Positions 1-22,815 of a stretch of 37,184 nucleotides of DNA are shown in pieces. Position numbers and translations under genes: made by a program. The notes under the pieces are model-generated. The model worked only from the letters and a program-made list of their open reading frames with translations. It was not told the origin of the DNA and searched no databases. Positions within the stretch are counted from its first letter, which is position 1. Each line of letters begins with the position of its first letter. Origin of the DNA: Rhodospirillaceae bacterium (GTDB taxonomy: Bacteria > Pseudomonadota > Alphaproteobacteria > Rhodospirillales > 2-02-FULL-58-16); contig DUZD01000002.1 of assembly GCA_013349695.1 (NCBI GenBank), positions 1 to 37,184 of the forward strand, in the 5' to 3' direction.

Positions 1-471
1 CGAGACACCCCCGGTCAAGCCTGTTTTCGACGGCGAAAAGCAGGCCAAACTGACCGCCTTGGCCTGCTCCAAGCCACCGAAAGGACGCTGCAAATGGACG
101 TTGCGGCTTCTGGCGGAAAAGGTGGTGGAGCTTGAAATCGTCGTGTCCGTGCATTTCAACACTGTCGGGCGGGTGTTAAAAAAAACGCGCTCAAGGCGCA
201 TCTGAAACGGCAATGGATCATCCCGCCCAAGGCCAATTCCGCCTTCGTGGCGGCGATGGAAGATGTGCTGGAGGTCTACACGCGCCCGCTGGTTTGTCTC
301 GACGAGGCCAGCAGGCAACTTATCGCCGAAACGCGCATGCCGCCGCCAAAGTGGCACGATATCATCGGCGAACCCAGCTTCGCCGACGCCATCCTCGAAC
401 GCATCGTCCACAACGCCCACGGGATCGATCCGGATGAACCGAAAAAAAACAGACGGCCGCCGTTATTGTGA
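1..471 (+). pseudogene. Degenerate IS630-family transposase remnant (frameshifted, truncated, chimeric tail)
   Basis: Frame 2 from nt 2 reads ...KGRCKWTLRLLAEKVVELEIVVSVHFNTVGRVLKK. After a -1 shift inside the A8 run (178-185) it continues NALKAHLKRQWIIPPKANSAFVAAMEDVLEVYTRPLVCLDEASRQL. This matches my recollection of the N-terminal HTH part of IS630-type transposases. No DDE catalytic region follows. From about nt 345 the frame reads KWHDIIGEPSFADAILERIVHNAHGI, a motif I associate with C-termini of IS helper/ATP-binding proteins. The window starts inside the element. Confidence 0.6.
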
Positions 472-947: not shown

Positions 948-1154
948 TCAGCCGCCGCCGGATCCTTTCTTCCGGCCCACCGATTCCGCTATCCCGATCA
1001 AGATCGCCAGGATCAGGAACAACACGGCGCCAAGCCCCCACACGCGGGCGTTGGTGGGCATGTAGATCATCGGGATCGTGTAGTACATGAGCGACAAAGC
1101 CCCCCAGATCGCAAAAATAACGCCGAAAAGCCAACCGTCCTCGCTTTTCATCAT
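948..1154 (-). CDS. Small two-TM membrane protein, putative accessory subunit of the oxidase-like complex
   Basis: The ORF track gives 948..1172 (TTG start). ATG at 1154 is preceded by AAGGAGACGA on the minus strand and gives MMKSEDGWLFGVIFAIWGALSLMYY...VWGLGAVLFLILAILIGIAESV, two hydrophobic helices. It starts 25 nt after the subunit I stop on the same strand. Confidence 0.5.
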   Translation of the reverse strand: MMKSEDGWLFGVIFAIWGALSLMYYTIPMIYMPTNARVWGLGAVLFLILAILIGIAESVGRKKGSGGG

Positions 1155-1178: not shown

Positions 1179-2849
1179 TTAATGTCCGCCGGCGATCACC
1201 TCGATGGCCAGCCCGTCCATGAGATTGAAACCCAGCACCGTGAAAGCGTACATGCCGGCGACAAGGACCATCACGGAAAGCGGGCCGAACCAAGCCGTCC
1301 GGCGTCCGAGGGCGACGCCGCCCCAGGACACGGCGGGAAGACCGGGCAGTTCCTCGCCGGGCGAACGCCTGGGCCCGAAGAACGTCGCTGTCAGAGCGTA
1401 AACATAGACCGCCAGGGCCACCGTCATGAATATCGCGCCGATTCCGACGCAGGTCATGACCGTGCTCCAGACGGCCGGAGCGTCGCCGCCGTAGGAGATG
1501 TCGAACACACGGCGCGGAACCCCCGTGTAGCCGGCCGCGATACCCGACGCTCCGAAAATGAGCAGACCGAAAGTGAGCAAGTAGGGAATCTTGTTCAGCA
1601 GGGAAGGATTCCACAAGTCCCGTCCGCTCAAGGCCGGGATGATGTAGAGCAACGCCGCGATGAAGGTGAGCGTCACCGTTCCCACCGTCAGGAAATGGAA
1701 ATAGCCGGGGACGAAGAAGGTGTCGCTGAGCAACGGCGCCAGCCCTTCCATGATCAGCACGAAGGATAACCCACCGCCGATGGCCAGGTTGACGACCGCC
1801 ATGCCAACGGCGCTCATGGCCGGGTTGCCCCAGGGCAGCATGCGGATCCAGCCGAAAATCCCTTTGCCGCCATGGGCGCGGCCATGCACCTCGAGGGTGG
1901 CGACGATGACCATGAACACGAGCAAGGTGGGAACGCTGATGAACAGGGACAAAAGAGAGCCAAGCACCCGCACCACCTCGCTCAGGTCGGGTTCCAGGAA
2001 CATGTGGTAAAGGGAAGTCGGCGGCACGAAGACCAAATAACTGGCGAAGATGATTTTCGAAAACCGCCGCCCGAAGATCGATTTGACTCCCACCATGACC
2101 TCGACCAGCGCGTACCACACCAAGGCGGTAGCCATGAGCGGCAGGTAGTGGACGTTGTGGAACAGCAGATTCCAGCCCATTACATAACCCATGCTTATGG
2201 TCTGACTGGTACCGAAGGCCCAGTCCGCCGCTGGCAGAAAGATGTTGATCGCCGCCATGGAGCTGACGATCAGCAGGCCAGCCCAGGCAACGGCGGCGAA
2301 GGATACCGCCGACCAGGTTTCTATCTTGCCTTCGAGTTTGGGTTTGAGCGCCGTGTAAATGGCCGGCACCGCGACCAGAAACTGCCCGACGCCGAGCAGC
2401 AAATAGCCGACGTAAAAGTAAGCGGCCTGGGCCCTGTTATCCTCGGTGACCACCTCGGGCGGCGCGTTGTAAAGAATCGCCACGCCGTTTAAAACGCTGA
2501 ATTCGTTGAGGATAAAGCCAATTGTCATGGCGATGAAGCCGAGCCACGCCAGCGGCCGCCAAGCGATGGCGCCGGCGCTCTCGGTGTAGACCACGGCTAA
2601 GATCAGCACCAACGCGGCCTGCACGAAATATAGCCAGTAGAAGAAGATGGTGACCCCGTGCAGGGTCAATATCTGGTAGGCCATCTCGGCTTCCAATTCG
2701 ATGAAGCCGGCGCGCATGAAGGCGTTGGTTACCCCATAGAGGACGCCGAGGGCCAGGGTCAGCACCGCCATGACGATAAAGGCCTTGAGCAGGTTCTTGT
2801 CCGTGTTGGGCAGTTTTTTCAGCCCGTCCACAAGCAAGTTTTGGGTCAT
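1179..2849 (-). CDS. Heme-copper oxidase superfamily subunit I homologue, B-family (ba3-like), with atypical ligand set
   Basis: 556 aa polytopic membrane protein. Motifs AYQILTLHGV, FHNVHY, SLYHMF, GIFGWIRMLPWGNPAM, VPGYFHF and GVPRR align block by block with Thermus ba3 CbaA as I recall it. ATG at 2849 has GGAAGGA upstream. Confidence 0.85.
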   Translation of the reverse strand: MTQNLLVDGLKKLPNTDKNLLKAFIVMAVLTLALGVLYGVTNAFMRAGFIELEAEMAYQILTLHGVTIFFYWLYFVQAALVLILAVVYTESAGAIAWRPLAWLGFIAMTIGFILNEFSVLNGVAILYNAPPEVVTEDNRAQAAYFYVGYLLLGVGQFLVAVPAIYTALKPKLEGKIETWSAVSFAAVAWAGLLIVSSMAAINIFLPAADWAFGTSQTISMGYVMGWNLLFHNVHYLPLMATALVWYALVEVMVGVKSIFGRRFSKIIFASYLVFVPPTSLYHMFLEPDLSEVVRVLGSLLSLFISVPTLLVFMVIVATLEVHGRAHGGKGIFGWIRMLPWGNPAMSAVGMAVVNLAIGGGLSFVLIMEGLAPLLSDTFFVPGYFHFLTVGTVTLTFIAALLYIIPALSGRDLWNPSLLNKIPYLLTFGLLIFGASGIAAGYTGVPRRVFDISYGGDAPAVWSTVMTCVGIGAIFMTVALAVYVYALTATFFGPRRSPGEELPGLPAVSWGGVALGRRTAWFGPLSVMVLVAGMYAFTVLGFNLMDGLAIEVIAGGH

Positions 2850-2873: not shown

Positions 2874-3620
2874 CTACTCGACAATGATTTTGCCAAACAT
2901 CGTGTCGTGGCCTATGCCGCAGTAAACGGTGCAGTAAAAGAAGTATTCACCCGGCTGGGTAAAAGTGATCACGTTTTCGCTCAGTGCATTTGCCCGCAAC
3001 CGGATCATACGGCTTGCGCTACCGAGGTTGATCGATGCGCCGTGGCTGGTGTCGGTTCCCATCATCAGGAATTTGTATTGAACGCCGGTCTCCAATGTGA
3101 GCTCCGCCGGCTCGTAAGACCATCGAGAGGCGGCGATGTAGACCTCGATGGGCTCCTCGTCATGGGCCTCCTCGCCGGCGCCAGGTTTCTCCATGACCAT
3201 CTCGGGCATGCCTCCCGGGTGTGCATGTTCCGCTTCTTCCGCTTCGCCCATCATGGCCTTCAGTTTCGCCATGCCTTGCCGCGTCGGACGGACGCTGCCG
3301 TCCGGCAAGGTATTTATTGTGACGAAGGCCGCGGTCCGACGCTGGAACTCGGCGGCGGACATTCCGCCGCCCATACCCATCATGCCCCCCATTGCCGGCA
3401 TGTCCATTTTCATCGCCGGCATGGCGTCCCCCATGCCGGGCTCGCCGTGCTCCTGGACCGTGTCGCCGGCGGCCGGCTCCCCGTCGGAGCCAAAGCCCAA
3501 AGGGGCATGGCCGTAAGCGGCCCAAAGCAGGTAAAGGGAAAGCACACTCAACCCGACAACGAACACAAAGCCCTTATGCGTGCTGATACTCTGTCCGTTC
3601 GTGTTCGATTCCGTTTCCAT
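2874..3620 (-). CDS. Cytochrome oxidase subunit II-like CuA cupredoxin protein with Met/His-rich linker
   Basis: 248 aa with one N-terminal TM (FVFVVGLSVLSLYLLWAAY) and a C-terminal cupredoxin. CuA signature is present: DTSHG ... YCTVYCGIGHDTM (H, CxxxCxxxHxxM). GAAGGAGGGG lies upstream of the ATG at 3620. It sits 24 nt upstream of subunit I. Confidence 0.85.
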   Translation of the reverse strand: METESNTNGQSISTHKGFVFVVGLSVLSLYLLWAAYGHAPLGFGSDGEPAAGDTVQEHGEPGMGDAMPAMKMDMPAMGGMMGMGGGMSAAEFQRRTAAFVTINTLPDGSVRPTRQGMAKLKAMMGEAEEAEHAHPGGMPEMVMEKPGAGEEAHDEEPIEVYIAASRWSYEPAELTLETGVQYKFLMMGTDTSHGASINLGSASRMIRLRANALSENVITFTQPGEYFFYCTVYCGIGHDTMFGKIIVE

Positions 3621-3706
3621 GCGCCCCTCCTTCGCGAAACGCTATTGAACCGAATTCGCGGATTACATGCGTTATAAACAATATAATAAAACCAATTTGA
3701 AAACAA

Positions 3707-3753
3707 GTAATATTGGCAAAACACCGGCCTGCCCGGTGTTTTGCCAATATTAC
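3707..3753 (-). terminator. Intrinsic terminator-like hairpin downstream of the rhodanese gene
   Basis: Perfect 21-bp stem (3707-3727 / 3733-3753) with a 5-nt loop (cctgc). On the minus strand it is followed by TTGTTTTCAAATTGG. It lies between the rhodanese stop (3797) and the AT-rich oxidase-operon upstream region. Confidence 0.6.
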
Positions 3754-3796: not shown

Positions 3797-4708
3797 TCAG
3801 GGCAGCTTCACCCGCCGCTCAACGGGATTGGCCGGATCGGTGGTCCATTCGGCCAGCGAGCCGTCGTACATTCTTGTCCGCTTGTTGCCGAGGATTTCGT
3901 AAGACACGAACCAGCCCAGGGACGCCCAGTGGCCGGTGTTGCAGAAGTTGATGACCGGTCCCTCGGTCGGGGCGCCGGCTGTCTCGTAGAGCTTGCCGAT
4001 TGCCGAGGCATCGCGGAAAGCGCCGCCGCCGTTCCTGGTCAGCCAGACGCCCGGCACGTTCTTGGCGCCGGGGATGGTGCCCGGGCGTTTGACGGAACCG
4101 CTTTTGTTGATGCCGAGGAACTGGTCGCTGGAGCGGTTGTCGATCAGGGCCGCGCCGCCGTTTAGCGCCCGTTTCACGTCCTCGGCGGTGGCCAGCAACT
4201 TTGCATTCATGCGCGCCGTGAAGGTTTTCGGCCGGGGTTTGCTTTTGCCCTTGGCCAGGGGATTGGCGCGGTTGGCGAAATAGCCGGTCATGCCGCCGTC
4301 GAGGATGGAAACCTCGTCATGGCCGAGGACCTTGAATGTCCAATAGAGGCGGGCCGCCTTGGCCATCTCGCCGGCGCCGTGGCCGCCGGCAACGACGACC
4401 ACGTGGGTTTTGTTGTCGACGCCCAGACCGCCGATCAAGGCTTGCAGATAATCGATGCCGGGAAGCAGGCCCCTGACGCCTCCCTTGTTGACCCGCCAAC
4501 CCTTTTTGCCGCCATAGTCCGTATGGACGGCGCCGGGAATGTGGGCGTTCCCGAACTCCCGCTTGCCGCGAACGTCGAGAAACACAACGCCGGGCCGTTG
4601 CAGGTTGGTCCCGACCCAGTCCGCGTCGAGGAGCGGTTCCGCCGCCAGGGTTTGACCGGCTAGAACGAGGACCGGGAAAAAGGCAATAAACAAAAGGCTT
4701 TTTTTCAT
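3797..4708 (-). CDS. Secreted tandem-rhodanese sulfurtransferase (thiosulfate/3-mercaptopyruvate sulfurtransferase-like)
   Basis: Start chosen at ATG 4708 (MKKSLLFIAFFPVLVLAGQTLAAEP, signal-peptide-like); the track ORF extends to 4744. There are two rhodanese-like halves, with an active-site loop FCNTGHWAS near the C-terminus. Confidence 0.75.
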   Translation of the reverse strand: MKKSLLFIAFFPVLVLAGQTLAAEPLLDADWVGTNLQRPGVVFLDVRGKREFGNAHIPGAVHTDYGGKKGWRVNKGGVRGLLPGIDYLQALIGGLGVDNKTHVVVVAGGHGAGEMAKAARLYWTFKVLGHDEVSILDGGMTGYFANRANPLAKGKSKPRPKTFTARMNAKLLATAEDVKRALNGGAALIDNRSSDQFLGINKSGSVKRPGTIPGAKNVPGVWLTRNGGGAFRDASAIGKLYETAGAPTEGPVINFCNTGHWASLGWFVSYEILGNKRTRMYDGSLAEWTTDPANPVERRVKLP

Positions 4709-4912
4709 CGGAGATGTTCCCTGGAGCACCACGCTTTTACCCATTCGCGGAAACTCAACTTGTTTTGCCGCCGTGGGCGGCCGACCAAGCGGTGGAACCC
4801 GGCTTTGCCGAAGGCGACGGGGTTGGCATTCGGATTATCCCGGCGGTAGGATCGTCCGGCCTCTAACCGGCATTGATCTTCTGTTTAGAGAGAAGCGACG
4901 GAGAGGGAAAGG

Positions 4913-6145
4913 GTGAATCGGAAGCAGCGGCGCCGGATGGCGAAACGGCAACGCCCGGGAGCGCCGGCGGCGACGGATCGGCTGTTGGACGAGGCGTTGG
5001 AGCAGCACCGGGCCGGGCGGCTGGACAAGGCCAAGGTCCTCTACGAGGACGTCCTCTCGGCGAAGCCGGACGATGCCGGCGCCTTGCACTTCCTTGGCGT
5101 TCTTGCCCACCAGCAGGGAGACCACGAGGAGGCATACCGGCTCATCAGCCGGGCGATCGCCGCCGACGGCCGCCAACCCGCCTTTCATGACCACCAGGGC
5201 GTGGCCCTGCGCTGGATGGGACGGACAGGCGAAGCCGAAGCCGCCCACCGCCGGGCCATCGAACTCGACCCCGGTTTCGCCGCCGCCTATGTCAATCTGG
5301 GTAACACCCTGGGCGTTCGGGGCAGGCTGGAAGAAGCGGAAACGGCCTTCCGGCGCGGCCTCGAACTCAATCCCGCCGACGCCGGCGCCCATAACAACCT
5401 CGGCAACACCTTACGGGTGCGGGGCAAGCTGACCGAGGCGGCCGACGCCTACCGCGGGGCCTTGGAGCTCAATCCGGATTTCGCCAAGGCCCATTCCAAC
5501 CTTGGCGCCATTTTGCGCGAGTTCGGCGACTTCCAGCAAGCCGAGACCGCCTGCCGGCGGGCCATCGAGCTCGATCCGGGCTACGCCGACGCCTATAACA
5601 ACCTGGGCAACGTCTTGATGGCGATGGAAAGGGTGGAAGAAGGAGTCGAACGTTACCGCCAAGCCGTCGCCTTCGATCCCAACTCCCCCTTGCTTTTGTC
5701 CAATCTGGGTGGCGGTTTGACCACCCTCGGACGGCTGGATGAAGCGCAAACCATGTTCCGCCGCGCCATCGAAATGAACCCGGATTGCGCCGAGGCGCAC
5801 AACGGGTTGGGGGTGGTCATGCTCTCTCAGGGCAAGACCGAGGAAGCCTTGGCCAACTATCGAAAGGCCCTCGCCATCAAGCCGGATTATGTGGACGTCT
5901 TCTACAACATGACGAACTCGGGGCGGGTCGAATTCGCCGCCGGCGAATTACGCCGGATCGGGGAAATGCTCGCCGACAACGGTCTCTCCGATGAAGCCAA
6001 GGCCAAACTTCGCTTCGCGCTCGCCGAGCACCATGCCCGCCGGGGCGAAATCGATACCGCTTTCGACCTATACCGGCAGGGCAACGAAGCGCGGCGGCAA
6101 GCCCTGGCGGCGGCGGGCCGCCGTTACGATGGCGCCTCGCAGTAG
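4913..6145 (+). CDS. TPR-repeat protein (N-terminal part of a TPR-sulfotransferase architecture)
   Basis: 410 aa with at least 8 recognisable 34-aa TPR units (…A..Y..AIELDP..A.AY.NLGN…). GTG start at 4913 has GGAGAGGGAAAGG upstream. It ends at TAG 6143-6145. Confidence 0.8.
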   Translation: MNRKQRRRMAKRQRPGAPAATDRLLDEALEQHRAGRLDKAKVLYEDVLSAKPDDAGALHFLGVLAHQQGDHEEAYRLISRAIAADGRQPAFHDHQGVALRWMGRTGEAEAAHRRAIELDPGFAAAYVNLGNTLGVRGRLEEAETAFRRGLELNPADAGAHNNLGNTLRVRGKLTEAADAYRGALELNPDFAKAHSNLGAILREFGDFQQAETACRRAIELDPGYADAYNNLGNVLMAMERVEEGVERYRQAVAFDPNSPLLLSNLGGGLTTLGRLDEAQTMFRRAIEMNPDCAEAHNGLGVVMLSQGKTEEALANYRKALAIKPDYVDVFYNMTNSGRVEFAAGELRRIGEMLADNGLSDEAKAKLRFALAEHHARRGEIDTAFDLYRQGNEARRQALAAAGRRYDGASQ

Positions 6146-6148
6146 GCG

Positions 6149-6943
6149 ATGGTGGACAAAAGGAAGGCAATGTTCAGGCGTGACTTTTTCGCCGATCGCG
6201 GGGATTTCGGTTTGCCGTCGGAAGTCCCTGTGTTCATTGTCGGCATGCCGCGCTCCGGGACGACGCTCATCGAACAGATCGCGGCCAGCCATCCGCTGGT
6301 CCATGGGGCGGGGGAACTGAAGGACATAGCGATCGCCGCCGCCAACTTGCCCAAGGTTTTGGATACGGAAACTCCCTATCCGGATTGCTTGGCCGTCATG
6401 GATGGCGAGACATCGCGGCGCTTGGCGGAAGATCGCCTGCGCCGTCTCGGCGCCTTGGCTCCCGGCGCCGCCCGCGTCATCGACAAGATGCCGTTCAATT
6501 ACCTTCACCTCGCCCTGATCGCCCTCCTGCACCCCGCCGCCAGGATCATCCACTGCCGCCGCGACGCCCGGGACCTGGGCCTTTCATGCTACTTGCAGAA
6601 TTTCACCGATTCCCATCCCTGGACGACACGGCTGGAAGACATCGGCCACTATTTCAAAGCCTATGAGAGCCTGATGGACCACTGGCGGCGGGTCCTGCCG
6701 TTAAAGGTAATGGACATCGGCTACGAGGCCCTGATCAACGACCAGGAAGGGGAAAGCCGCCGCCTGATTGATTTTCTCGGGCTGCCGTGGGACGACGCCT
6801 GCCTCGAATTCCATAACACCCGGCGGGCCGTGCGCACGGCCTCGAACTGGCAGGTTCGCCAGCCCATCTACTCGAAATCGGTGGGCCGATGGCGGCTTTA
6901 CGAGAAATTCCTCGATCCCCTGAAACGGGCTTTGGAAAGCTGA
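6149..6943 (+). CDS. Sulfotransferase-family protein (PAPS-dependent type)
   Basis: 264 aa with PVFIVGMPRSGTTLIEQ (5'-PSB loop) and later RDARD / YE motifs. It is in the same reading frame as the TPR ORF, two codons after it. Confidence 0.8.
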   Translation: MVDKRKAMFRRDFFADRGDFGLPSEVPVFIVGMPRSGTTLIEQIAASHPLVHGAGELKDIAIAAANLPKVLDTETPYPDCLAVMDGETSRRLAEDRLRRLGALAPGAARVIDKMPFNYLHLALIALLHPAARIIHCRRDARDLGLSCYLQNFTDSHPWTTRLEDIGHYFKAYESLMDHWRRVLPLKVMDIGYEALINDQEGESRRLIDFLGLPWDDACLEFHNTRRAVRTASNWQVRQPIYSKSVGRWRLYEKFLDPLKRALES

Positions 6944-6954
6944 ATTTGGCCGGA

Positions 6955-6984
6955 CCTCCAAGGCGGCGCGCGCCGCCTTGGAGG
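6955..6984. terminator. Perfect 30-nt GC-rich palindrome after the sulfotransferase gene
   Basis: CCTCCAAGGCGGCGC|GCGCCGCCTTGGAGG begins 12 nt after the stop codon. No T-run follows, so terminator function is uncertain. Confidence 0.35.
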
Positions 6985-7183
6985 TGTGGATCTGGCCGTT
7001 GCCGATCACCATCGCCACGGGTGTAAAGGCTTGTCCGGGTCGGGGTATGGCGGCGCGAGCGCTGTCGCCCGCGCCGCCGGTTGAAGTCGATATGCGCGAC
7101 TTTGCCGATCCGGGTCTCGGTTCCACTTCCTGCCTCCCCGGAGCCGCCTCCGGGCCGTCCTCCGTTCGAACTCTCGATCCGCC

Positions 7184-7582
7184 CTAGTCGATTTGTTTGG
7201 TCATGAGGACCCCGTAGGCCATCAGCGCCATCATCGCCACCAGCAAGAGCGACCCCACCGGCGCTATCTGCAACACCCCCGGCAACCCTAAACTGGCGAG
7301 AATCAGCATGCCGGAATGGAGCAGGGCGCCGATGATGAGAAGGGCGCTCGCCACCTTGGCGACCCAGGCTTCAATGGCTAGGCGGCACAGCAGGTAGCCG
7401 AAGAAGATGTTGAGCAAGGATTCCAAGTTGGCGTGGGCGTGGGCGCCGCGGAACGCTTTACGCGCCTCGCTGGTGAGGACATGGGCGTCGGCCCCGTCCA
7501 GAAGGAAGGCCATGTACATGCCTAAAAGCAGGCTCGCCAGAAAATAGACGAAACCGAAAACCATGTTCTTCTTGCCAACCAT
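7184..7582 (-). CDS. Hypothetical 4-TM membrane protein
   Basis: 132 aa, hydrophobic throughout. AGGAG lies 8 nt upstream of the ATG (minus strand GAGAGGAGCAACGATATG). I recognise no family. Confidence 0.55.
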   Translation of the reverse strand: MVGKKNMVFGFVYFLASLLLGMYMAFLLDGADAHVLTSEARKAFRGAHAHANLESLLNIFFGYLLCRLAIEAWVAKVASALLIIGALLHSGMLILASLGLPGVLQIAPVGSLLLVAMMALMAYGVLMTKQID

Positions 7583-7617
7583 ATCGTTGCTCCTCTCTGA
7601 TTATAAGTCTGTGGTGC

Positions 7618-7627
7618 GGGGGGGGGG
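7618..7627. repeat. G10 (C10 on the coding strand) homopolymer upstream of the membrane-protein gene
   Basis: Direct reading gives gtggtgc GGGGGGGGGG agg, 36 nt upstream of the ATG at 7582. Confidence 0.9.
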
Positions 7628-7858
7628 AGGCGCACGGAAAATTCCACTCTCGCCTTAACGGCGGCGCGGATTAAGAAATATTTCGTACTTTGAAATCAAA
7701 TATGCCGTTCACCCCCTGAGTAATATTATCAGCTTTGAGCGGCATTATGGTGAAATTGAGATTGGACCGCAACAGTAAATGGCGGTGCTGGATTAGGCAC
7801 ATGTAATGTGACGAACTTCAAAACCATGACACTAGCCGCGGGCAAAAAACACTATGCG

Positions 7859-8335
7859 TCAAGTTGGCGGCGCCCGTCTGGAGGAAGCTGATTTTCTCGC
7901 CGGGTTTCCCATGTATATCCCTGGAGCCGATATATCTTTCGTCACAACGGCGCCGGCGCCGACGACGACATCGCCGCAGATCGATACGGGCAATATGGTG
8001 GCGTTGGAACCGATACAAACATTATTGCCGATATTGGTCGGCCGCCAAAGTTCGGGTCTCTCCCGCGCCGGCCCGCCGTTCCTGAAAAGATCGTTCACGA
8101 ACATCACCCCGTGGGCGATGAAGCAATCATCGCCGATACTCACCAATTCGCAAATGAAGCCGTGAGACTGGATTCGGCAACGCTCCCCAATGATAACGTT
8201 CCTCTGGATTTCAACGAATGGACCGATGAAACAGTCGTTGCCGATGGTGCAGCCGTAAAGATTTACGGGACGCCTGACGGTCACGTTCTTCCCGAAAGTA
8301 ACGTCTACAATGCCAACGTCGTTATATTTAACCAT
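7859..8335 (-). CDS. Left-handed beta-helix (hexapeptide-repeat) sugar N/O-acyltransferase
   Basis: 158 aa with repeated [LIV]-G-x4 hexapeptides (IGNDCFIGPFVEI, IGERCRIQSHGFI, IGDDCFIAHGVMF, IGNNVCIGSNATI). It is immediately downstream of the DegT gene. Confidence 0.8.
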   Translation of the reverse strand: MVKYNDVGIVDVTFGKNVTVRRPVNLYGCTIGNDCFIGPFVEIQRNVIIGERCRIQSHGFICELVSIGDDCFIAHGVMFVNDLFRNGGPARERPELWRPTNIGNNVCIGSNATILPVSICGDVVVGAGAVVTKDISAPGIYMGNPARKSASSRRAPPT

Positions 8336-8367
8336 TCATTGCTACACTTGTTTTGTGTCATTGTTAC

Positions 8368-9504
8368 TTATGGTCCGGATTCGATAAAGCGGGCGAGAAC
8401 GTCAACGACACGCTTAATCTGTTCATCCGTTATTTCAGGATAAATGGGCAGGGAAAGGATCCGCCGATTAACGCCTTCGGAGATGGGAAGGTCGCCTTCC
8501 TTGTATCCGAGATTCCGGTAGCATTTCTGCAAATGCAATGGAATGGGGTAATGGAGTTGCGCCATCACCCCGTTTTCACGCAGATAGGCATGACATGCGT
8601 CCCGATTGTCGATCTGGACGACATAAAGATGATAGACGGGTTCCGCTCCCGGAGCCGCGGCGGGACATTTCACCGGCAGCGGTTCCAGTAATTCGTCATA
8701 GCGGGCGGCGGCCCGGCGTCTCGCTTCGGTCCATTCGCGCAGGTATGGAAGTTTGCGGAGCAGGATAGCCGCCTGCAGCGAATCGAGTCTGGAATTGTAT
8801 CCGACGGTATCGTGGACTCCGGACATGATGGTGCCGTTCTGCCCGTAATTGGAAAAACGCAGCGCCGTTGCCGCCAGATCGTCGTTGTCGGTGAGAATAA
8901 GGCCGCCGTCGCCATAGGCGCCTAGGTTCTTGCTGGGATAAAAGCTGAAACAGGCCATGTCGCCCAACGTTCCGGCAAGTCTGCCTTGTTCTCTCGCCAA
9001 GGGCGCCTGGGCTACGTCTTCAACGATTTTGATGCCTCGGCGTTGGCAGATGGGTCCGATATCCGACATCGGCGCCGGGTGCCCGAACAAGTGGACCGGG
9101 ATCACCGCCTTGGTCCGGGGGGTAAGCGCTTTTTCCAGGGCGGCGGGATCCATCTGATGGGTATCGGGGTTGATCTCCACAAAGACCGGCGTGGCGCCGG
9201 CGTGGGAGATGGCGAATGCCGTGGAAATCCAAGTATTGGGAACCGTAACGACTTCATCCCCCGGGCCGATTTCGAGAGTCCGCACCGATATGGACAGGGC
9301 GTCGGTTCCCGATGCGACGCCAATGGCATGTTTGATATTATGGAGATCGGCGAAGCGTTCCTCGAAGTCGGTCAAGGCGGGGCCTCGAATAAACGCCGCC
9401 TCTTCGGCAACGCTTCTGATCGCCGGCATGACGTCGTTTTCGATTAACGAAAACTGTTTGGCCAAATCCACAAAAGGAATTCGGTCATTCGAATGTTTAC
9501 TCAT
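8368..9504 (-). CDS. DegT/DnrJ/EryC1/StrS-family PLP-dependent sugar aminotransferase
   Basis: 378 aa: IPFVDL…, GVASGTDAL, FSFYPSKNLGAYGDGG (PLP-lysine region), LHYPIPLHLQ. Confidence 0.85.
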   Translation of the reverse strand: MSKHSNDRIPFVDLAKQFSLIENDVMPAIRSVAEEAAFIRGPALTDFEERFADLHNIKHAIGVASGTDALSISVRTLEIGPGDEVVTVPNTWISTAFAISHAGATPVFVEINPDTHQMDPAALEKALTPRTKAVIPVHLFGHPAPMSDIGPICQRRGIKIVEDVAQAPLAREQGRLAGTLGDMACFSFYPSKNLGAYGDGGLILTDNDDLAATALRFSNYGQNGTIMSGVHDTVGYNSRLDSLQAAILLRKLPYLREWTEARRRAAARYDELLEPLPVKCPAAAPGAEPVYHLYVVQIDNRDACHAYLRENGVMAQLHYPIPLHLQKCYRNLGYKEGDLPISEGVNRRILSLPIYPEITDEQIKRVVDVLARFIESGP

Positions 9505-20077: not shown

Positions 20078-21202
20078 TCACGCCCTCGCTGGCCGTTTGG
20101 CTGGCGGACCCAGCCGCACCGGCAACCGTCTCGCCCCCCAATCGCCCGGCCGGCCGTCGAAAATCCCCGCGCAAGCGGCGCCGCAATTGGTGCATTTGCC
20201 GTCGTCCGTCAAGTTCCAGGTCGACAGCACGTACCAGTCGCGGCCGATCAGTATCGAACCGCAGTCATGACAATAGGTGCTTTCGCCCACGAAGTCGTGG
20301 ACGTTACCCGTATATGCGTAGCGCAGCCCGTTTTTCATGGCGATGTCGCGGGCCTGGCTCAACGTCGATAAAGGCGTTCTGGGTAGGTCCAGCATCTTCC
20401 AGTCGGGATGGAAAGCGGAAAAGTGCATGGGAACGTCGGGGCCCAGGGCATCGACGACCCATTGGGTCATTTCCTCCAGTTCGGCTGGCGAGTCGTTCTC
20501 GCCGGGAATCAACAGCGTCGTGATCTCGAACCAGACGTCGGTTTCATGCTTGAGATACTTGAGCGTCTCCAGGATCGGCTCGAGATGGCCGCTGCAAAGC
20601 CGCCGATAGAAATCCTCGGTGAAACACTTGAGATCGACGTTGGCGGCATCCATGTGGCGGAAAAACTCGACCCGCGGTTCATCGCGGATGTAGCCGGCGG
20701 TCACCGCCACCGTCTGGATGCCCCGCTCGTGGCAGGCTTGGGCGACGTCAACGGCATACTCTAGAAAAATGACCGGATCGTTATAGGTAAAGGCGACGCT
20801 TCTGCTGCCGGTTTGATGGGCCGCGTCGGCGATCATCTCCGGCGTCGCCTTATCGGTCAGGCGGTGGAACTCACGGGCCTTGCTGATGTCCCAGTTCTGG
20901 CAGAACTTGCAAGTCAAGTTGCAGCCCGCCGTGCCAAAGGAGAGCACCGGCGTCCCGGGCAGGAAATGACTGAGCGGTTTCTTCTCGATGGGATCGACGC
21001 AAAAACCGCTGGAACGCCCGTAGGTGGTCAAAACCACCTGCTCGTCCCGGCGGGCGCGGACGAAGCAGAGCCCCCGCTGCCCCTCGCGCAGCTTGCACAA
21101 GCGCGGACAGAGGTCGCACTGCACCCGGCCATCGTCAAGGACGTGCCAATATCGGCCGGGATGGGCATCGGCGAAGGTCTCGGGTGATGGCTTTGTTTGC
21201 AT
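20078..21202 (-). CDS. amrS: AmmeMemoRadiSam system radical SAM enzyme
   Basis: N-terminal CDLCPRLCKL...GLCFVR cluster, radical-SAM GCNLTCKFCQNW (CxxxCxxC) and C-terminal CTNCG. It is divergent from a Memo-AMMECR1 gene. Confidence 0.85.
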   Translation of the reverse strand: MQTKPSPETFADAHPGRYWHVLDDGRVQCDLCPRLCKLREGQRGLCFVRARRDEQVVLTTYGRSSGFCVDPIEKKPLSHFLPGTPVLSFGTAGCNLTCKFCQNWDISKAREFHRLTDKATPEMIADAAHQTGSRSVAFTYNDPVIFLEYAVDVAQACHERGIQTVAVTAGYIRDEPRVEFFRHMDAANVDLKCFTEDFYRRLCSGHLEPILETLKYLKHETDVWFEITTLLIPGENDSPAELEEMTQWVVDALGPDVPMHFSAFHPDWKMLDLPRTPLSTLSQARDIAMKNGLRYAYTGNVHDFVGESTYCHDCGSILIGRDWYVLSTWNLTDDGKCTNCGAACAGIFDGRPGDWGARRLPVRLGPPAKRPARA

Positions 21203-21369
21203 TGCCGCCGTTCGCCGCCGGAAAGGTGTACATCTTTTTATAACTTGATGATTAAGTGGGCGCCACCGCCGGTAACGTCAATCCTGGAGTCATCTCCACC
21301 ACTCCCCTTTACAGACCCGAAATCCGGGATTACTTAATTAAATTAGGGCGGTTTCCAAAGGAGGCAACC

Positions 21370-22815
21370 ATGACCTCGGTCAGGCAACCCGCCGTGGCCG
21401 GCGCTTTCTACCCCGGTGACGCCAAGGAACTGGACGCAACGGTGCGCTCTTACTTGGCGCAAGCCGGCGAACCGACGGGCCCGGCGCCGAAGGCCGTCAT
21501 CGCCCCGCATGCCGGTTATATTTATTCCGGTCAGGTGGCGGCGAGCGCTTACGCCAGGCTCAAACCCGCCCGCCAGAGCATTCGCCGGGTGGTTCTCCTG
21601 GGCCCCTGTCACCGCCTGCCGGTGCGGGGGCTGGCGCTCAGCGGCGCCGATGCTTTTTTAACGCCCTTGGGCGAGGTGCCCGTGGACCGGGAAGCCGGCG
21701 GCGCCATCCTCGACCTTCCCCAGGTCGAGGTCTTCGACGACAGCCATGCCAAGGAACACAGCCTGGAGGTGCAGCTGCCTTTCCTGCAAGTGGTCTTGGA
21801 GGGCTTTACCCTTGTCCCGCTGATCGTCGGCCAGACCAGGGGTGCAAAGGTGGCCGAGGTGATCGAGCGCCTTTGGGGCGGGCCGGAAACCCTGATCGTC
21901 ATCAGTTCCGACCTCAGCCATTATCTCGATTACGACAGTGCCCGCCGCCTGGACGGTGTCACCTGCCGGGCGATAGAGAACCTCGACCCCGCCGGCATCG
22001 GCCAGGACCAGGCCTGCGGGCGCGTCCCCGTTTGGGGCATGTTGATGTCGGCCAAGCGCCGCGGTCTCAAGGTCGATACCCTGGACGTGTGCAATTCCGG
22101 CGACACCGCCGGGACGCGGGAGCGGGTGGTCGGTTACGGCTCGTGGATTTTCCTGGAGGCCGATGACGATGCCAGTGAACGGGACGGCGAGGAAGCGTTC
22201 GCCAAGGAAACGCGCCGGCTGCTGGCGGACCACGGTCCGACCCTGCTGCGCCTTGCCGCCGCCTCCATCGAGCACGGCTTGGCTTTTGGCAAGCCGCGGA
22301 CGGTCAACGCCGCCGAATACCCGGCCGACATCGGCCGTCGAGCCGCCTGCTTCGTTACCCTGAAACGGGACGGCAAGCTTCGCGGCTGTATCGGCTCGAC
22401 CGAGCCCCACCGTTCGTTGGTGGTCGACGTTGCCGAGAACGCCTTCTCCTCCGCCTTCAAGGACAGGCGCTTCAAACCATTGACGAAACGGGAACTGCAA
22501 GGACTCGCCCTATCCATATCGGTGTTAGGCGACTCCCAGCCCATGGCTTTCACCGACGAGGCGGACTTGCTCGCCCAACTCCGCCCCGGCGTCGACGGTT
22601 TGATCATCGAGGACCAGGGACACCGCGCTCTCTTTTTGCCCTCCGTCTGGGAGCTTCTTCCCGAGCCCGGTAAATTCATGGCTAACCTCAAGGCCAAGGC
22701 CGGGATGGCGGCCAACCACTGGTCCGGCGGCTTCAAGGCTTGGCGTTTCGCCGCCGAGGAATTCTCGACGGACGATTTGGCCGGCGGCGAGACCGTCTGG
22801 GGCCAGCGGCGGTAA
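21370..22815 (+). CDS. Fused AmmeMemoRadiSam system protein B (MEMO1-like) and protein A (AMMECR1 domain)
   Basis: ATG 21370 is preceded by AAGGAGG. The N-terminal half has AGAFYPGD, IAPHAGYIYSG and HSLEVQLPFLQ (Memo motifs). The C-terminal half has ACFVTLKRDGKLRGCIGS (AMMECR1 motif). Total 481 aa. Confidence 0.85.
   Translation: MTSVRQPAVAGAFYPGDAKELDATVRSYLAQAGEPTGPAPKAVIAPHAGYIYSGQVAASAYARLKPARQSIRRVVLLGPCHRLPVRGLALSGADAFLTPLGEVPVDREAGGAILDLPQVEVFDDSHAKEHSLEVQLPFLQVVLEGFTLVPLIVGQTRGAKVAEVIERLWGGPETLIVISSDLSHYLDYDSARRLDGVTCRAIENLDPAGIGQDQACGRVPVWGMLMSAKRRGLKVDTLDVCNSGDTAGTRERVVGYGSWIFLEADDDASERDGEEAFAKETRRLLADHGPTLLRLAAASIEHGLAFGKPRTVNAAEYPADIGRRAACFVTLKRDGKLRGCIGSTEPHRSLVVDVAENAFSSAFKDRRFKPLTKRELQGLALSISVLGDSQPMAFTDEADLLAQLRPGVDGLIIEDQGHRALFLPSVWELLPEPGKFMANLKAKAGMAANHWSGGFKAWRFAAEEFSTDDLAGGETVWGQRR

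Follow-up and report, generated by a model that had tools for sequence, protein, structure and literature searches.

A heme-copper oxidoreductase family derived from ba3-type enzymes with tyrosine at two metal-ligand histidine positions, and its possible role in copper stress

What chemistry does a heme-copper oxidoreductase carry out when tyrosine takes the place of both a CuB histidine and the proximal histidine of its high-spin heme? This question is raised by a gene in a stretch of 37,184 nucleotides from a Rhodospirillaceae bacterium (assembly GCA_013349695.1, contig DUZD01000002.1, positions 1 to 37,184), hereafter the window. The gene (1179..2849, minus strand) encodes subunit I of the enzyme, a protein of 556 amino acids with 13 transmembrane (TM) helices, and is the middle member of a cassette of three. 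That subunit I has six metal-binding histidines is regarded as a defining constant of the heme-copper superfamily; in a prior survey gNOR alone alters any of the six, and no family alters the proximal heme ligand (PMC11214002). An initial annotation of the window, made from the sequence alone, had claimed that two of the six are tyrosine in this protein, and had considered the resulting ligand set foreign to the characterised oxidase and nitric oxide reductase (NOR) families. The latter point agrees with the survey.

Subunit I scores 139.8 bits against Pfam COX1 (PF00115), where the cut-off is 34.8, and its best match in the PDB is CbaA of the Thermus thermophilus ba3 oxidase (E about 1e-29 to 3e-30, phmmer). 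The paired blocks (subunit I/CbaA) are AYQILTLHGV/YYQGLTLHGV, FHNVHY/GHPIVY, SLYHMF/GFHHQF, GWIRMLPWGNPA/GWIRALPWDNPA and VPGYFHF/VPGHFHL. In residues (family/ba3), H64 (2658..2660, minus strand as for all positions in this gene) pairs with H72, the second axial ligand of the low-spin heme b. The helix VI motif F230-H231-N232-V233-H234-Y235 (2145..2162) provides the pairs H231/H233 and Y235/Y237. Y281-H282 (2004..2009) corresponds to the CuB ligands H282-H283, the first of which is Tyr here, and Y383-F384-H385 (1695..1703) corresponds to H384-F-H386, that is, to the proximal ligand of the high-spin heme, here Tyr, and to the heme b ligand H386. When canonical sequences (20 B-family or eNOR-like sequences plus ba3) were placed on the family profile with hmmalign, their HH and HFH fell in the tyrosine columns. 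Profile-profile comparison with hhalign (probability 100, E 7e-61, 518 columns) gave the same correspondences, pairing PPTSLYHMF with vPVg~HHq~ and VPGYFHF with v~GHFH~. By three independent alignments, Tyr281 is at the position of the ba3 CuB ligand His282 and Tyr383 at that of the proximal heme-a3 ligand His384. All residue assignments of the initial annotation (His72, His233, Tyr237, H282->Tyr, H384->Tyr, His386) were reproduced by HMMER, hmmalign and hhalign. The equality of the spacings between the blocks, on which it had relied, is real; the phmmer alignment has no gaps over about residues 262-416. The exact residue counts hinge on where the counting starts.

Each of the two Tyr codons, TAC for Y281 (2007-2009) and TAT for Y383 (1701-1703), is one base from a His codon, so that in a lone sequence they could be sequencing errors. 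The protein might then be an ordinary ba3-type cytochrome c oxidase whose tyrosines result from misalignment, from sequencing error or from strain-specific lesions as the gene decays. The ratio of nonsynonymous to synonymous substitution rates (dN/dS) between the window and its closest relative (L001, a Rhodospirillaceae metagenome-assembled genome (MAG) whose copy is 94% identical) is 0.48, which would suit such decay, at a dS of just 0.066. Against it stand the agreement of the three alignments and the finding of the exact window protein on 12 contigs in several archives. Both tyrosines are present in 207/207 distinct family sequences, from Alpha-, Beta- and Gammaproteobacteria and from deep branches, and dN/dS is 0.06-0.22 in more than 100 other pairs, far below 1. 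The window copy retains 115/120 near-invariant family positions, and its reading frame is intact, with an ATG start and the ribosome-binding site GGAAGGA 8 nucleotides upstream. The ordinary-oxidase explanation can practically be dismissed, and the earlier description of a full-length gene with a good ribosome-binding site and no sign of decay holds.

Of 5.8 billion clustered proteins, 793 matched the query; the best 120 are 55-97% identical to it and 547-566 amino acids long, except for one truncated match of 529. One genome per species was scanned as well; 219 encoding loci were found, and the family thus occurs in at least 219 species. The taxonomy of the 80 loci fetched out of these 219 is Alpha-, Beta- and Gammaproteobacteria throughout. 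Cultured carriers are Azospirillum (A. brasilense/oryzae) and Hydrogenophaga pseudoflava (WP_308330137.1), and the only plasmid-type replicons are three Azospirillum chromids, unannotated. A profile search of 1.84 billion representatives at 50% identity gave 547 matches. All full-length matches of 200 bits or more have the Y/Y/H234 signature, including five deep branches with 25-45% mutual identity, and all matches of 193 bits or less have HH/HFH and Val or Gln at position 234. A word-indexed homologue search with the deep-branch sequences gave 10 matches. The Y/Y/H234 sequences are monophyletic in a neighbor-joining tree, in which the nearest relatives include an eNOR-like group. Within the family YH and YFH are uniform and HH or HFH never occurs, which was the ortholog test that the initial annotation had proposed. 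It is near certain, as far as identity and ligand set can be read from sequence, that these proteins are a distinct family derived from B-type (ba3-like) heme-copper oxidoreductases, here called the Tyr/Tyr family.

The family is apparently undescribed; full-text literature searches turned up no description of it, nor any expression or genetic data that bear on copper induction or copper sensitivity. The curA gene of Myxococcus xanthus was followed as a lead and rejected, as the paper concerns an unrelated cytochrome c. NCBIfam has no specific model (best TIGR02891, 35 bits against a cut-off of 670), and public annotations name the proteins 'cbb3-type' or 'ba3-type cytochrome c oxidase subunit I'. 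Such labels would inflate the counts of aerobic respiration genes in metagenome surveys. Three other full-length B-family-like proteins are aberrant heme-copper oxidase homologues in their own way: P0185 has Gly at the H233 position and Val-Arg instead of HH, P0205 has Gln, Ala-Asn, and Ser replacing the proximal His, and P0214 has Gln at the H233 position.

The changes in subunit I are not limited to the two tyrosines. Columns conserved in at least 97% of the 207 members and shared by at most 10% of 20 outgroup sequences amount to 20 signature positions, which include, in ba3 numbering, G232->Phe, V236->His, W239->Pro, S261->Gly, H282->Tyr, N366->Leu, D372->Ala, H376->Ser and H384->Tyr. In the columns of F230 (ba3 Gly232) and H234 (ba3 Val236), Phe and His are absent or rare among the outgroup sequences. 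Further replacements relative to ba3 are Y244->Val/Ala, T312->Val/Ala and T315->Ile/Val. F230, H231, H234, Y235, Y281, H282, Y383, R446 and R447 are each found in 207/207 sequences. The proximal histidine of the high-spin heme is absent from the family, and the canonical set of three CuB histidines is broken, with H231 and H282 kept and Tyr in the middle position. Y235, the helix VI tyrosine four residues past the CuB histidine and the position of the cross-link partner, is kept. N232 is Asn in the main clade and V, I or M in the deep branches. The low-spin heme b ligands H64 and H385 each occur in 206/207 sequences, so that bis-His ligation appears to be kept. The sole exception is P0073 (a cluster of 8 members), which reads VPGYFYF and in which His385 is also Tyr.

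The positions that serve gas and protons in ba3 are equally affected. G232 and V236, which we take to be at the inner end of the hydrophobic O2 channel, are Phe and His throughout; the PDB holds ba3 mutants at both. Y244, S261, T312 and T315 are presumably members of the single K-type proton pathway; of Y244, Y248, S261, S309, T312 and T315, only Y248 (Y246 in the family) and S309 (T308) are kept. D372 and H376, also replaced, are assumed to be at the heme-a3 propionates, in a proposed proton-loading or exit cluster; N366 is a further replaced residue in the surroundings of these propionates. The equivalent of W229 and the propionate-binding arginines (ba3 R449/R450) are retained. By alignment, therefore, four B-family features are missing (proximal His, canonical three-His CuB, K path and O2 channel); the electron wire, consisting of CuA, the heme b ligands, the propionate arginines and the W229 equivalent, is kept, while ligand set, gas channel and proton machinery have changed together. 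His234 is one helix turn from His231 and may be a third copper ligand that replaces ba3 His282. The initial annotation had described a '2-His(+Tyr)' site; with the new invariant His234 the site may in fact still be a 3-His site. Its account of the active site was correct in the two tyrosine changes and overlooked V236->His, G232->Phe and the losses in the K path and the proton-loading cluster.

The AlphaFold2 model of subunit I has 13 TM helices, a mean predicted local distance difference test (pLDDT) of 79 and a predicted TM-score (pTM) of 0.86. In Foldseek it is closest to ba3 (TM-score 0.75), with A-family enzymes at 0.6-0.7. The T. thermophilus enzyme CbaA/CbaB (PDB 1EHK, 1XME, 3S8F) is thus the closest known system by sequence and by fold, with 13 TM helices in each case. 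Both share the positions of H72/H386, of the CuB ligands H233/H283, of Tyr237, W229 and R449/R450, a CuA subunit II with identical ligands and a small extra membrane subunit. In contrast to ba3, the small subunit of the family is encoded downstream and has two helices, subunit II has a linker of about 100 residues that is rich in Met and His, and the gene context, in part of the relatives, is copper resistance rather than respiration.

The cassette itself is compact. Subunit II (2874..3620, minus strand, 248 amino acids) consists of an N-terminal membrane anchor, a periplasmic linker and a C-terminal CuA cupredoxin domain. The best PDB matches of the latter are the ba3 CuA domain (E about 1e-10), and all CuA ligands are aligned (H193, C230, C234, H238, M241). 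The small two-helix membrane subunit (948..1154, minus strand) has 68 amino acids from ATG 1154. Its mechanical reading frame begins at TTG 1172; AAGGAG lies 4-7 nucleotides before the ATG pair 1154/1151, and the start is therefore likely ATG 1154. Gaps of 24 and about 25 nucleotides separate the three genes, which all lie on the minus strand and have Shine-Dalgarno sites of their own (GAAGGAGG for subunit II, GGAAGGA for subunit I, AAGGAG for the small subunit). By their sequence, the three genes, from 3620 to 948, encode a complete three-subunit enzyme.

The same arrangement was found across 81 main-clade loci, to which all counts out of 81 refer. Subunit II is immediately upstream of subunit I in 81/81 loci and has the CuA motif CxxxCxxxHxxM in all of them, and the small subunit (median 68 amino acids) is immediately downstream in 69/81. 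The position of the gene between an intact CuA subunit II and a small membrane subunit, noted earlier for the window, is therefore a property of the family, and the proposed linkage to a subunit II with a Met/His-rich linker was found in every case. The linker, about 95-100 residues between anchor and cupredoxin, has a core EFxRR..F(V/I)..LPDGSV(R)P, also found in deep-branch subunit II sequences, flanked by variable Met- and/or His-rich tracts. Met plus His make up 10% of the linker in the family median and 17.9% in the window, the top of the set. The window subunit II has 10 Met within 40 residues, and its Met-rich tract (3360..3434, minus strand, residues 63-87, MGDAMPAMKMDMPAMGGMMGMGGGM) is, from its composition, a candidate Cu(I)-binding segment. 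The function of Met-rich domains has been treated in earlier work (PMC11494321).

The informative gene context is copper resistance and is visible in relatives only. Neighbours were clustered de novo and then labelled with Pfam. Neighbour types include a P1B-type ATPase (YHS and HMBD domains), DUF2933, DUF411 (CopG family), an ICMT/PEMT-like methyltransferase, a SHOCT protein, CusC, CusB and CusA, and pairs of OmpR-type response regulator and kinase. Within 8 kb, the neighbourhood used for copper genes, at least one copper-type gene is present in 37/81 loci and at least two in 29/81; the P1B-ATPase occurs in 18/81. By our estimate this is far above chance for the few such genes per genome. In Burkholderiales the cassette and the copper genes are on the same strand and tightly packed. 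In H. pseudoflava, CusS (with the CusS sensor domain) and CusR are divergent from a single tight same-strand array, which reads OEP-like, multicopper oxidase, plastocyanin-like cupredoxin, CusF, DUF411, subunit II, subunit I, small subunit, Met-rich protein, DUF2933, ICMT and P1B-ATPase. The arrangement in Azospirillum is divergent, with DUF2933, ICMT, CusCB and a Met-rich periplasmic protein. In a relative with 62% identity (L170), YebY is downstream of the cassette; YebY presumably accompanies CopC/CopD homologues in Escherichia coli. In copper loci of Burkholderiales and Azospirillum, the cassette directly adjoins genes for periplasmic proteins that are extremely rich in Met and match nothing in Pfam or NCBIfam (L045 9848-10480, L028 5352-5873, L062 5151-6011).

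The deep branches differ in part. In the deepest (P0151) the order is multicopper oxidase, subunit II, subunit I, small subunit, an unknown gene and a CopC/CopD fusion, with SCO1 close by. Other deep branches have cupredoxin, cytochrome c, subunit II, subunit I, small subunit and heme O synthase, or alternatively a GAF-kinase/GerE regulator followed by subunit II, subunit I and heme O synthase. This synthase exceeds the TIGR01473 cut-off and is encoded directly downstream in at least 17/51 metagenomic deep-branch loci that have room for it. The linkage speaks for the retention of a farnesylated heme and thus of a genuine high-spin heme site.

Taken together, we propose that the Tyr/Tyr family is a non-pumping, CuA-fed heme-copper oxidoreductase family that acts as a periplasmic electron sink in copper stress, a proposal that we regard as evenly balanced between right and wrong. 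The copper-linked role within it is moderately supported, by the gene context of relatives and by the Met/His-rich subunit II. Electrons would enter at CuA and go to heme b and then to the remodelled site. There, a tyrosinate-ligated (Tyr383) high-spin heme, probably heme O because its synthase is operon-linked in the deep branches, would face a copper held by H231, H282 and probably H234, with Tyr281 and Tyr235 close by. The enzyme would be no proton-pumping O2 reductase. The electrons would come from the oxidation of Cu(I), which would either bind at the Met/His tracts or be supplied by CusF, CopG or a cupredoxin, and they would be passed to O2 or H2O2. Tyrosinate-ligated hemes usually stay ferric and favour peroxide and high-valent chemistry, and H2O2 is for this reason ranked at least equal to O2 as the acceptor. 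The identities of donor and acceptor are hypotheses.

Several observations weigh against this proposal. Copper genes are absent within 8 kb in the window and in the subclade nearest to it (L001-L019 and L021-L022, marine or sediment MAGs of Alpha- and Gammaproteobacteria). Gene context there varies and is of the housekeeping kind, with no conserved neighbours besides the three-gene cassette, so that the copper link of the window copy rests on homologues of 50-60% identity and on the Met-rich linker. In the deep branches, the operons that include genes for cytochrome c, cupredoxin and heme O synthase resemble those of ordinary terminal oxidases. SCO1, CopCD and some P1B-ATPases can serve cuproenzyme assembly and not detoxification. 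The AlphaFold2 model has pLDDT values below 50 at 277-286, 369-381 and 445-456, the loops with Y281/H282, the stretch before Y383, and R446/R447. Multicopper oxidases co-occur with the cassette in 7 loci; a simple replacement of multicopper oxidase by the cassette, which was also considered, is weakened by this.

Some of these points would suit a respiratory, O2-reducing terminal oxidase with an unusual site, for which the copper genes serve assembly, or which is an alternative oxidase used when copper is plentiful or damages other oxidases. Its cross-link residue Tyr235 is invariant, H234 could restore a 3-His CuB, and the deep-branch operons, with SCO1 as well, look like those of true oxidases; cuproenzyme biogenesis is a function of CopCD, SCO1 and some P1B-ATPases. 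It is opposed by the proximal tyrosine, as hemes with this ligand normally resist reduction strongly and fail to bind O2. Replacement extends to the O2-channel positions Gly232 and Val236, to the K path and to D372/H376, and CusCBA, CusF, CusRS, CopG and DUF2933 are resistance and not assembly genes. A respiratory role is unlikely, though it is a contender of some weight.

A more specific form of the electron-sink proposal is a membrane-bound cuprous oxidase/peroxidase, in which Cu(I) would reduce CuA and a catalase-like heme o would reduce H2O2 (or O2) to water without pumping. This form is tentative, and we think it more doubtful than the general one. If true, it would be the first natural heme-copper oxidoreductase family with a tyrosinate-ligated catalytic heme and a rebuilt CuB (His/His/His-234 plus Tyr). 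Both Fenton reagents would be removed from the periplasm, by a new enzymatic arm of bacterial copper resistance and with a reaction type new to the superfamily. It would resemble the periplasmic cuprous oxidases (CueO, PcoA, CopA) and the cupredoxin CopI in that a Met/His-rich segment is found next to an electron-accepting copper centre of the cupredoxin fold, and in that the cassette, in part of the relatives, likewise belongs to copper-regulated operons of the cus/cop type. In architecture the two differ completely, as the cuprous oxidases have a trinuclear copper cluster where the Tyr/Tyr family has a membrane heme-copper subunit. The resemblance to cuprous oxidases is functional and hypothetical, and homology is limited to the cupredoxin fold.

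The heme pocket of catalases has a Tyr/His/Asn set. The main clade likewise has a proximal Tyr, together with His234 and Asn232 on the presumed distal-pocket face of helix VI. There is no homology, and the heme of the family is predicted to be in a membrane protein, beside copper and fed by CuA and heme b. This likeness is also a point in favour of a membrane peroxidase or catalase-like enzyme (cytochrome c or cupredoxin : H2O2 oxidoreductase) that guards the periplasm from peroxide and has no direct role in Cu(I) oxidation, and peroxiredoxin (AhpC/TSA) and thioredoxin genes are close to the cassette in two relatives. However, position 232 is V, I or M in deep branches, the peroxiredoxin neighbours are not conserved, and both the Met/His-rich subunit II and the embedding in copper operons would be left unexplained. 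Such an enzyme without a copper substrate is rather improbable.

Another possibility is a further B-family-derived NOR, similar to eNOR, bNOR, sNOR, gNOR or nNOR. These putative or proven NO reductases belong to the same radiation around the B family and also have remodelled active sites and a cupredoxin subunit II; of the B-derived families whose active sites are altered, several are NORs (PMC11214002). An eNOR-like group is among the nearest relatives in the tree, and the proton pathways of the Tyr/Tyr family are altered. The published precedent for replacement of a CuB histidine is a single one, gNOR (His->Asp), the first family found to replace any active-site histidine (PMC11214002). It has no CuA, whereas the Tyr/Tyr family has His->Tyr and an intact CuA. 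The B-derived NORs are recognised by the loss of the active-site Tyr and leave the proximal heme His in place; the Tyr/Tyr family, in which Tyr235 is invariant, is the reverse on both counts. The screen of Murali et al. (2024) sought families without the active-site tyrosine (PMC11214002), and a family that keeps it would not have been flagged. No nirS homologue was found in 167 family loci (0/167), and Pfam labels showed no denitrification genes (nirK, nos, nor accessory) in the 8 Pfam-annotated contexts, although the eNOR-like sister P0160 (HxxQQ) is located beside nirS. With the active-site Tyr kept and no denitrification context, the Tyr/Tyr family is not one of the published B-derived NORs, and an additional one is distinctly improbable. 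The P0160 cluster (L174/L175, 3844-7734) also contains a second weak COX1-like gene, a multiheme cytochrome, SCO1, a cytochrome b/ferredoxin fusion and heme O synthase.

The loss of canonical ligands and proton pathways could also indicate a non-catalytic derivative, that is, a membrane module for copper binding, sequestering or sensing, or an electron relay without a binuclear centre. B-like proteins without any CuB ligands do exist (P0185 and P0205). In the Tyr/Tyr family, however, seven potential ligand residues and both propionate arginines are present in 207/207 sequences, heme O synthase is operon-linked, and the intact input from CuA to heme b implies a redox reaction at its end. A non-catalytic role is very improbable.

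For the superfamily, the family breaks two constants at once, in a monophyletic group that is under purifying selection and occurs in at least 219 species. With the input chain kept and the residues associated with pumping shed, the scaffold appears to have been recruited for chemistry beyond the reduction of O2 and NO as now understood. The operon link to CusCBA, CusF, CopG, P1B-ATPase and CusRS places the family in a physiological context that is concrete and open to test, and it points to a part of copper defence that has been missing and may operate where multicopper oxidases do not. Presence in cultured, genetically tractable bacteria makes direct testing possible.

Upstream of the cassette in the window, an AT-rich region (3621..3706, minus strand) contains the ribosome-binding site of subunit II and is the presumed promoter; a scan of this region for consensus sigma-70 sites gave none. 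It is followed by a stem-loop of 20 bp with a T-rich tail (3707..3753, minus strand), which is read as the terminator of the next gene upstream and as the 5' boundary of the cassette. The hairpin is of unusual length and resembles a strong intrinsic terminator. The upstream gene (3797..4744, minus strand) encodes a two-domain rhodanese, similar to 3-mercaptopyruvate/thiosulfate sulfurtransferases and with a signal-like N-terminus. It is located 176 nucleotides from subunit II on the same strand, which might suggest joint sulfur chemistry (oxidation of sulfide, thiosulfate or persulfide) and may be why the initial annotation listed sulfur species among the substrates to try. The terminator lies between the two, and the rhodanese is a neighbour only in the window and in the 94%-identical L001, with one distant, unrelated match among the 81 loci. 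The sulfur link was rejected, and for the family we find it scarcely credible.

Downstream of the cassette are a convergent HAD-family gene and weak fragments of insertion sequence (IS) genes. The latter are two short reading frames (59-471, plus strand) that resemble the C-terminal part of HTH_32 and the C-terminus of IstB_IS21, below the Pfam cut-offs. A phage-type integrase adjoins the cassette in two relatives (L171 and L172). The cassette may be a mobile unit.

The other 33 kb of the window are of housekeeping content (Hda, PurM/PurN, leucyl aminopeptidase, LptFGD, SurA, PdxA, Sua5 and others) and contain no copper genes. Divergent genes for a radical SAM protein and a Memo-AMMECR1 fusion, at 20078-22815, form a pair of the AmmeMemoRadiSam type. 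Beyond the rhodanese, at 4913-9504, a TPR protein and a sulfotransferase (plus strand) are followed by a membrane protein of 132 amino acids, a hexapeptide acyltransferase and a DegT-type aminotransferase (minus strand). This cluster looks like one for sugar or polysaccharide modification, and its TPR and sulfotransferase genes are syntenic in L001.

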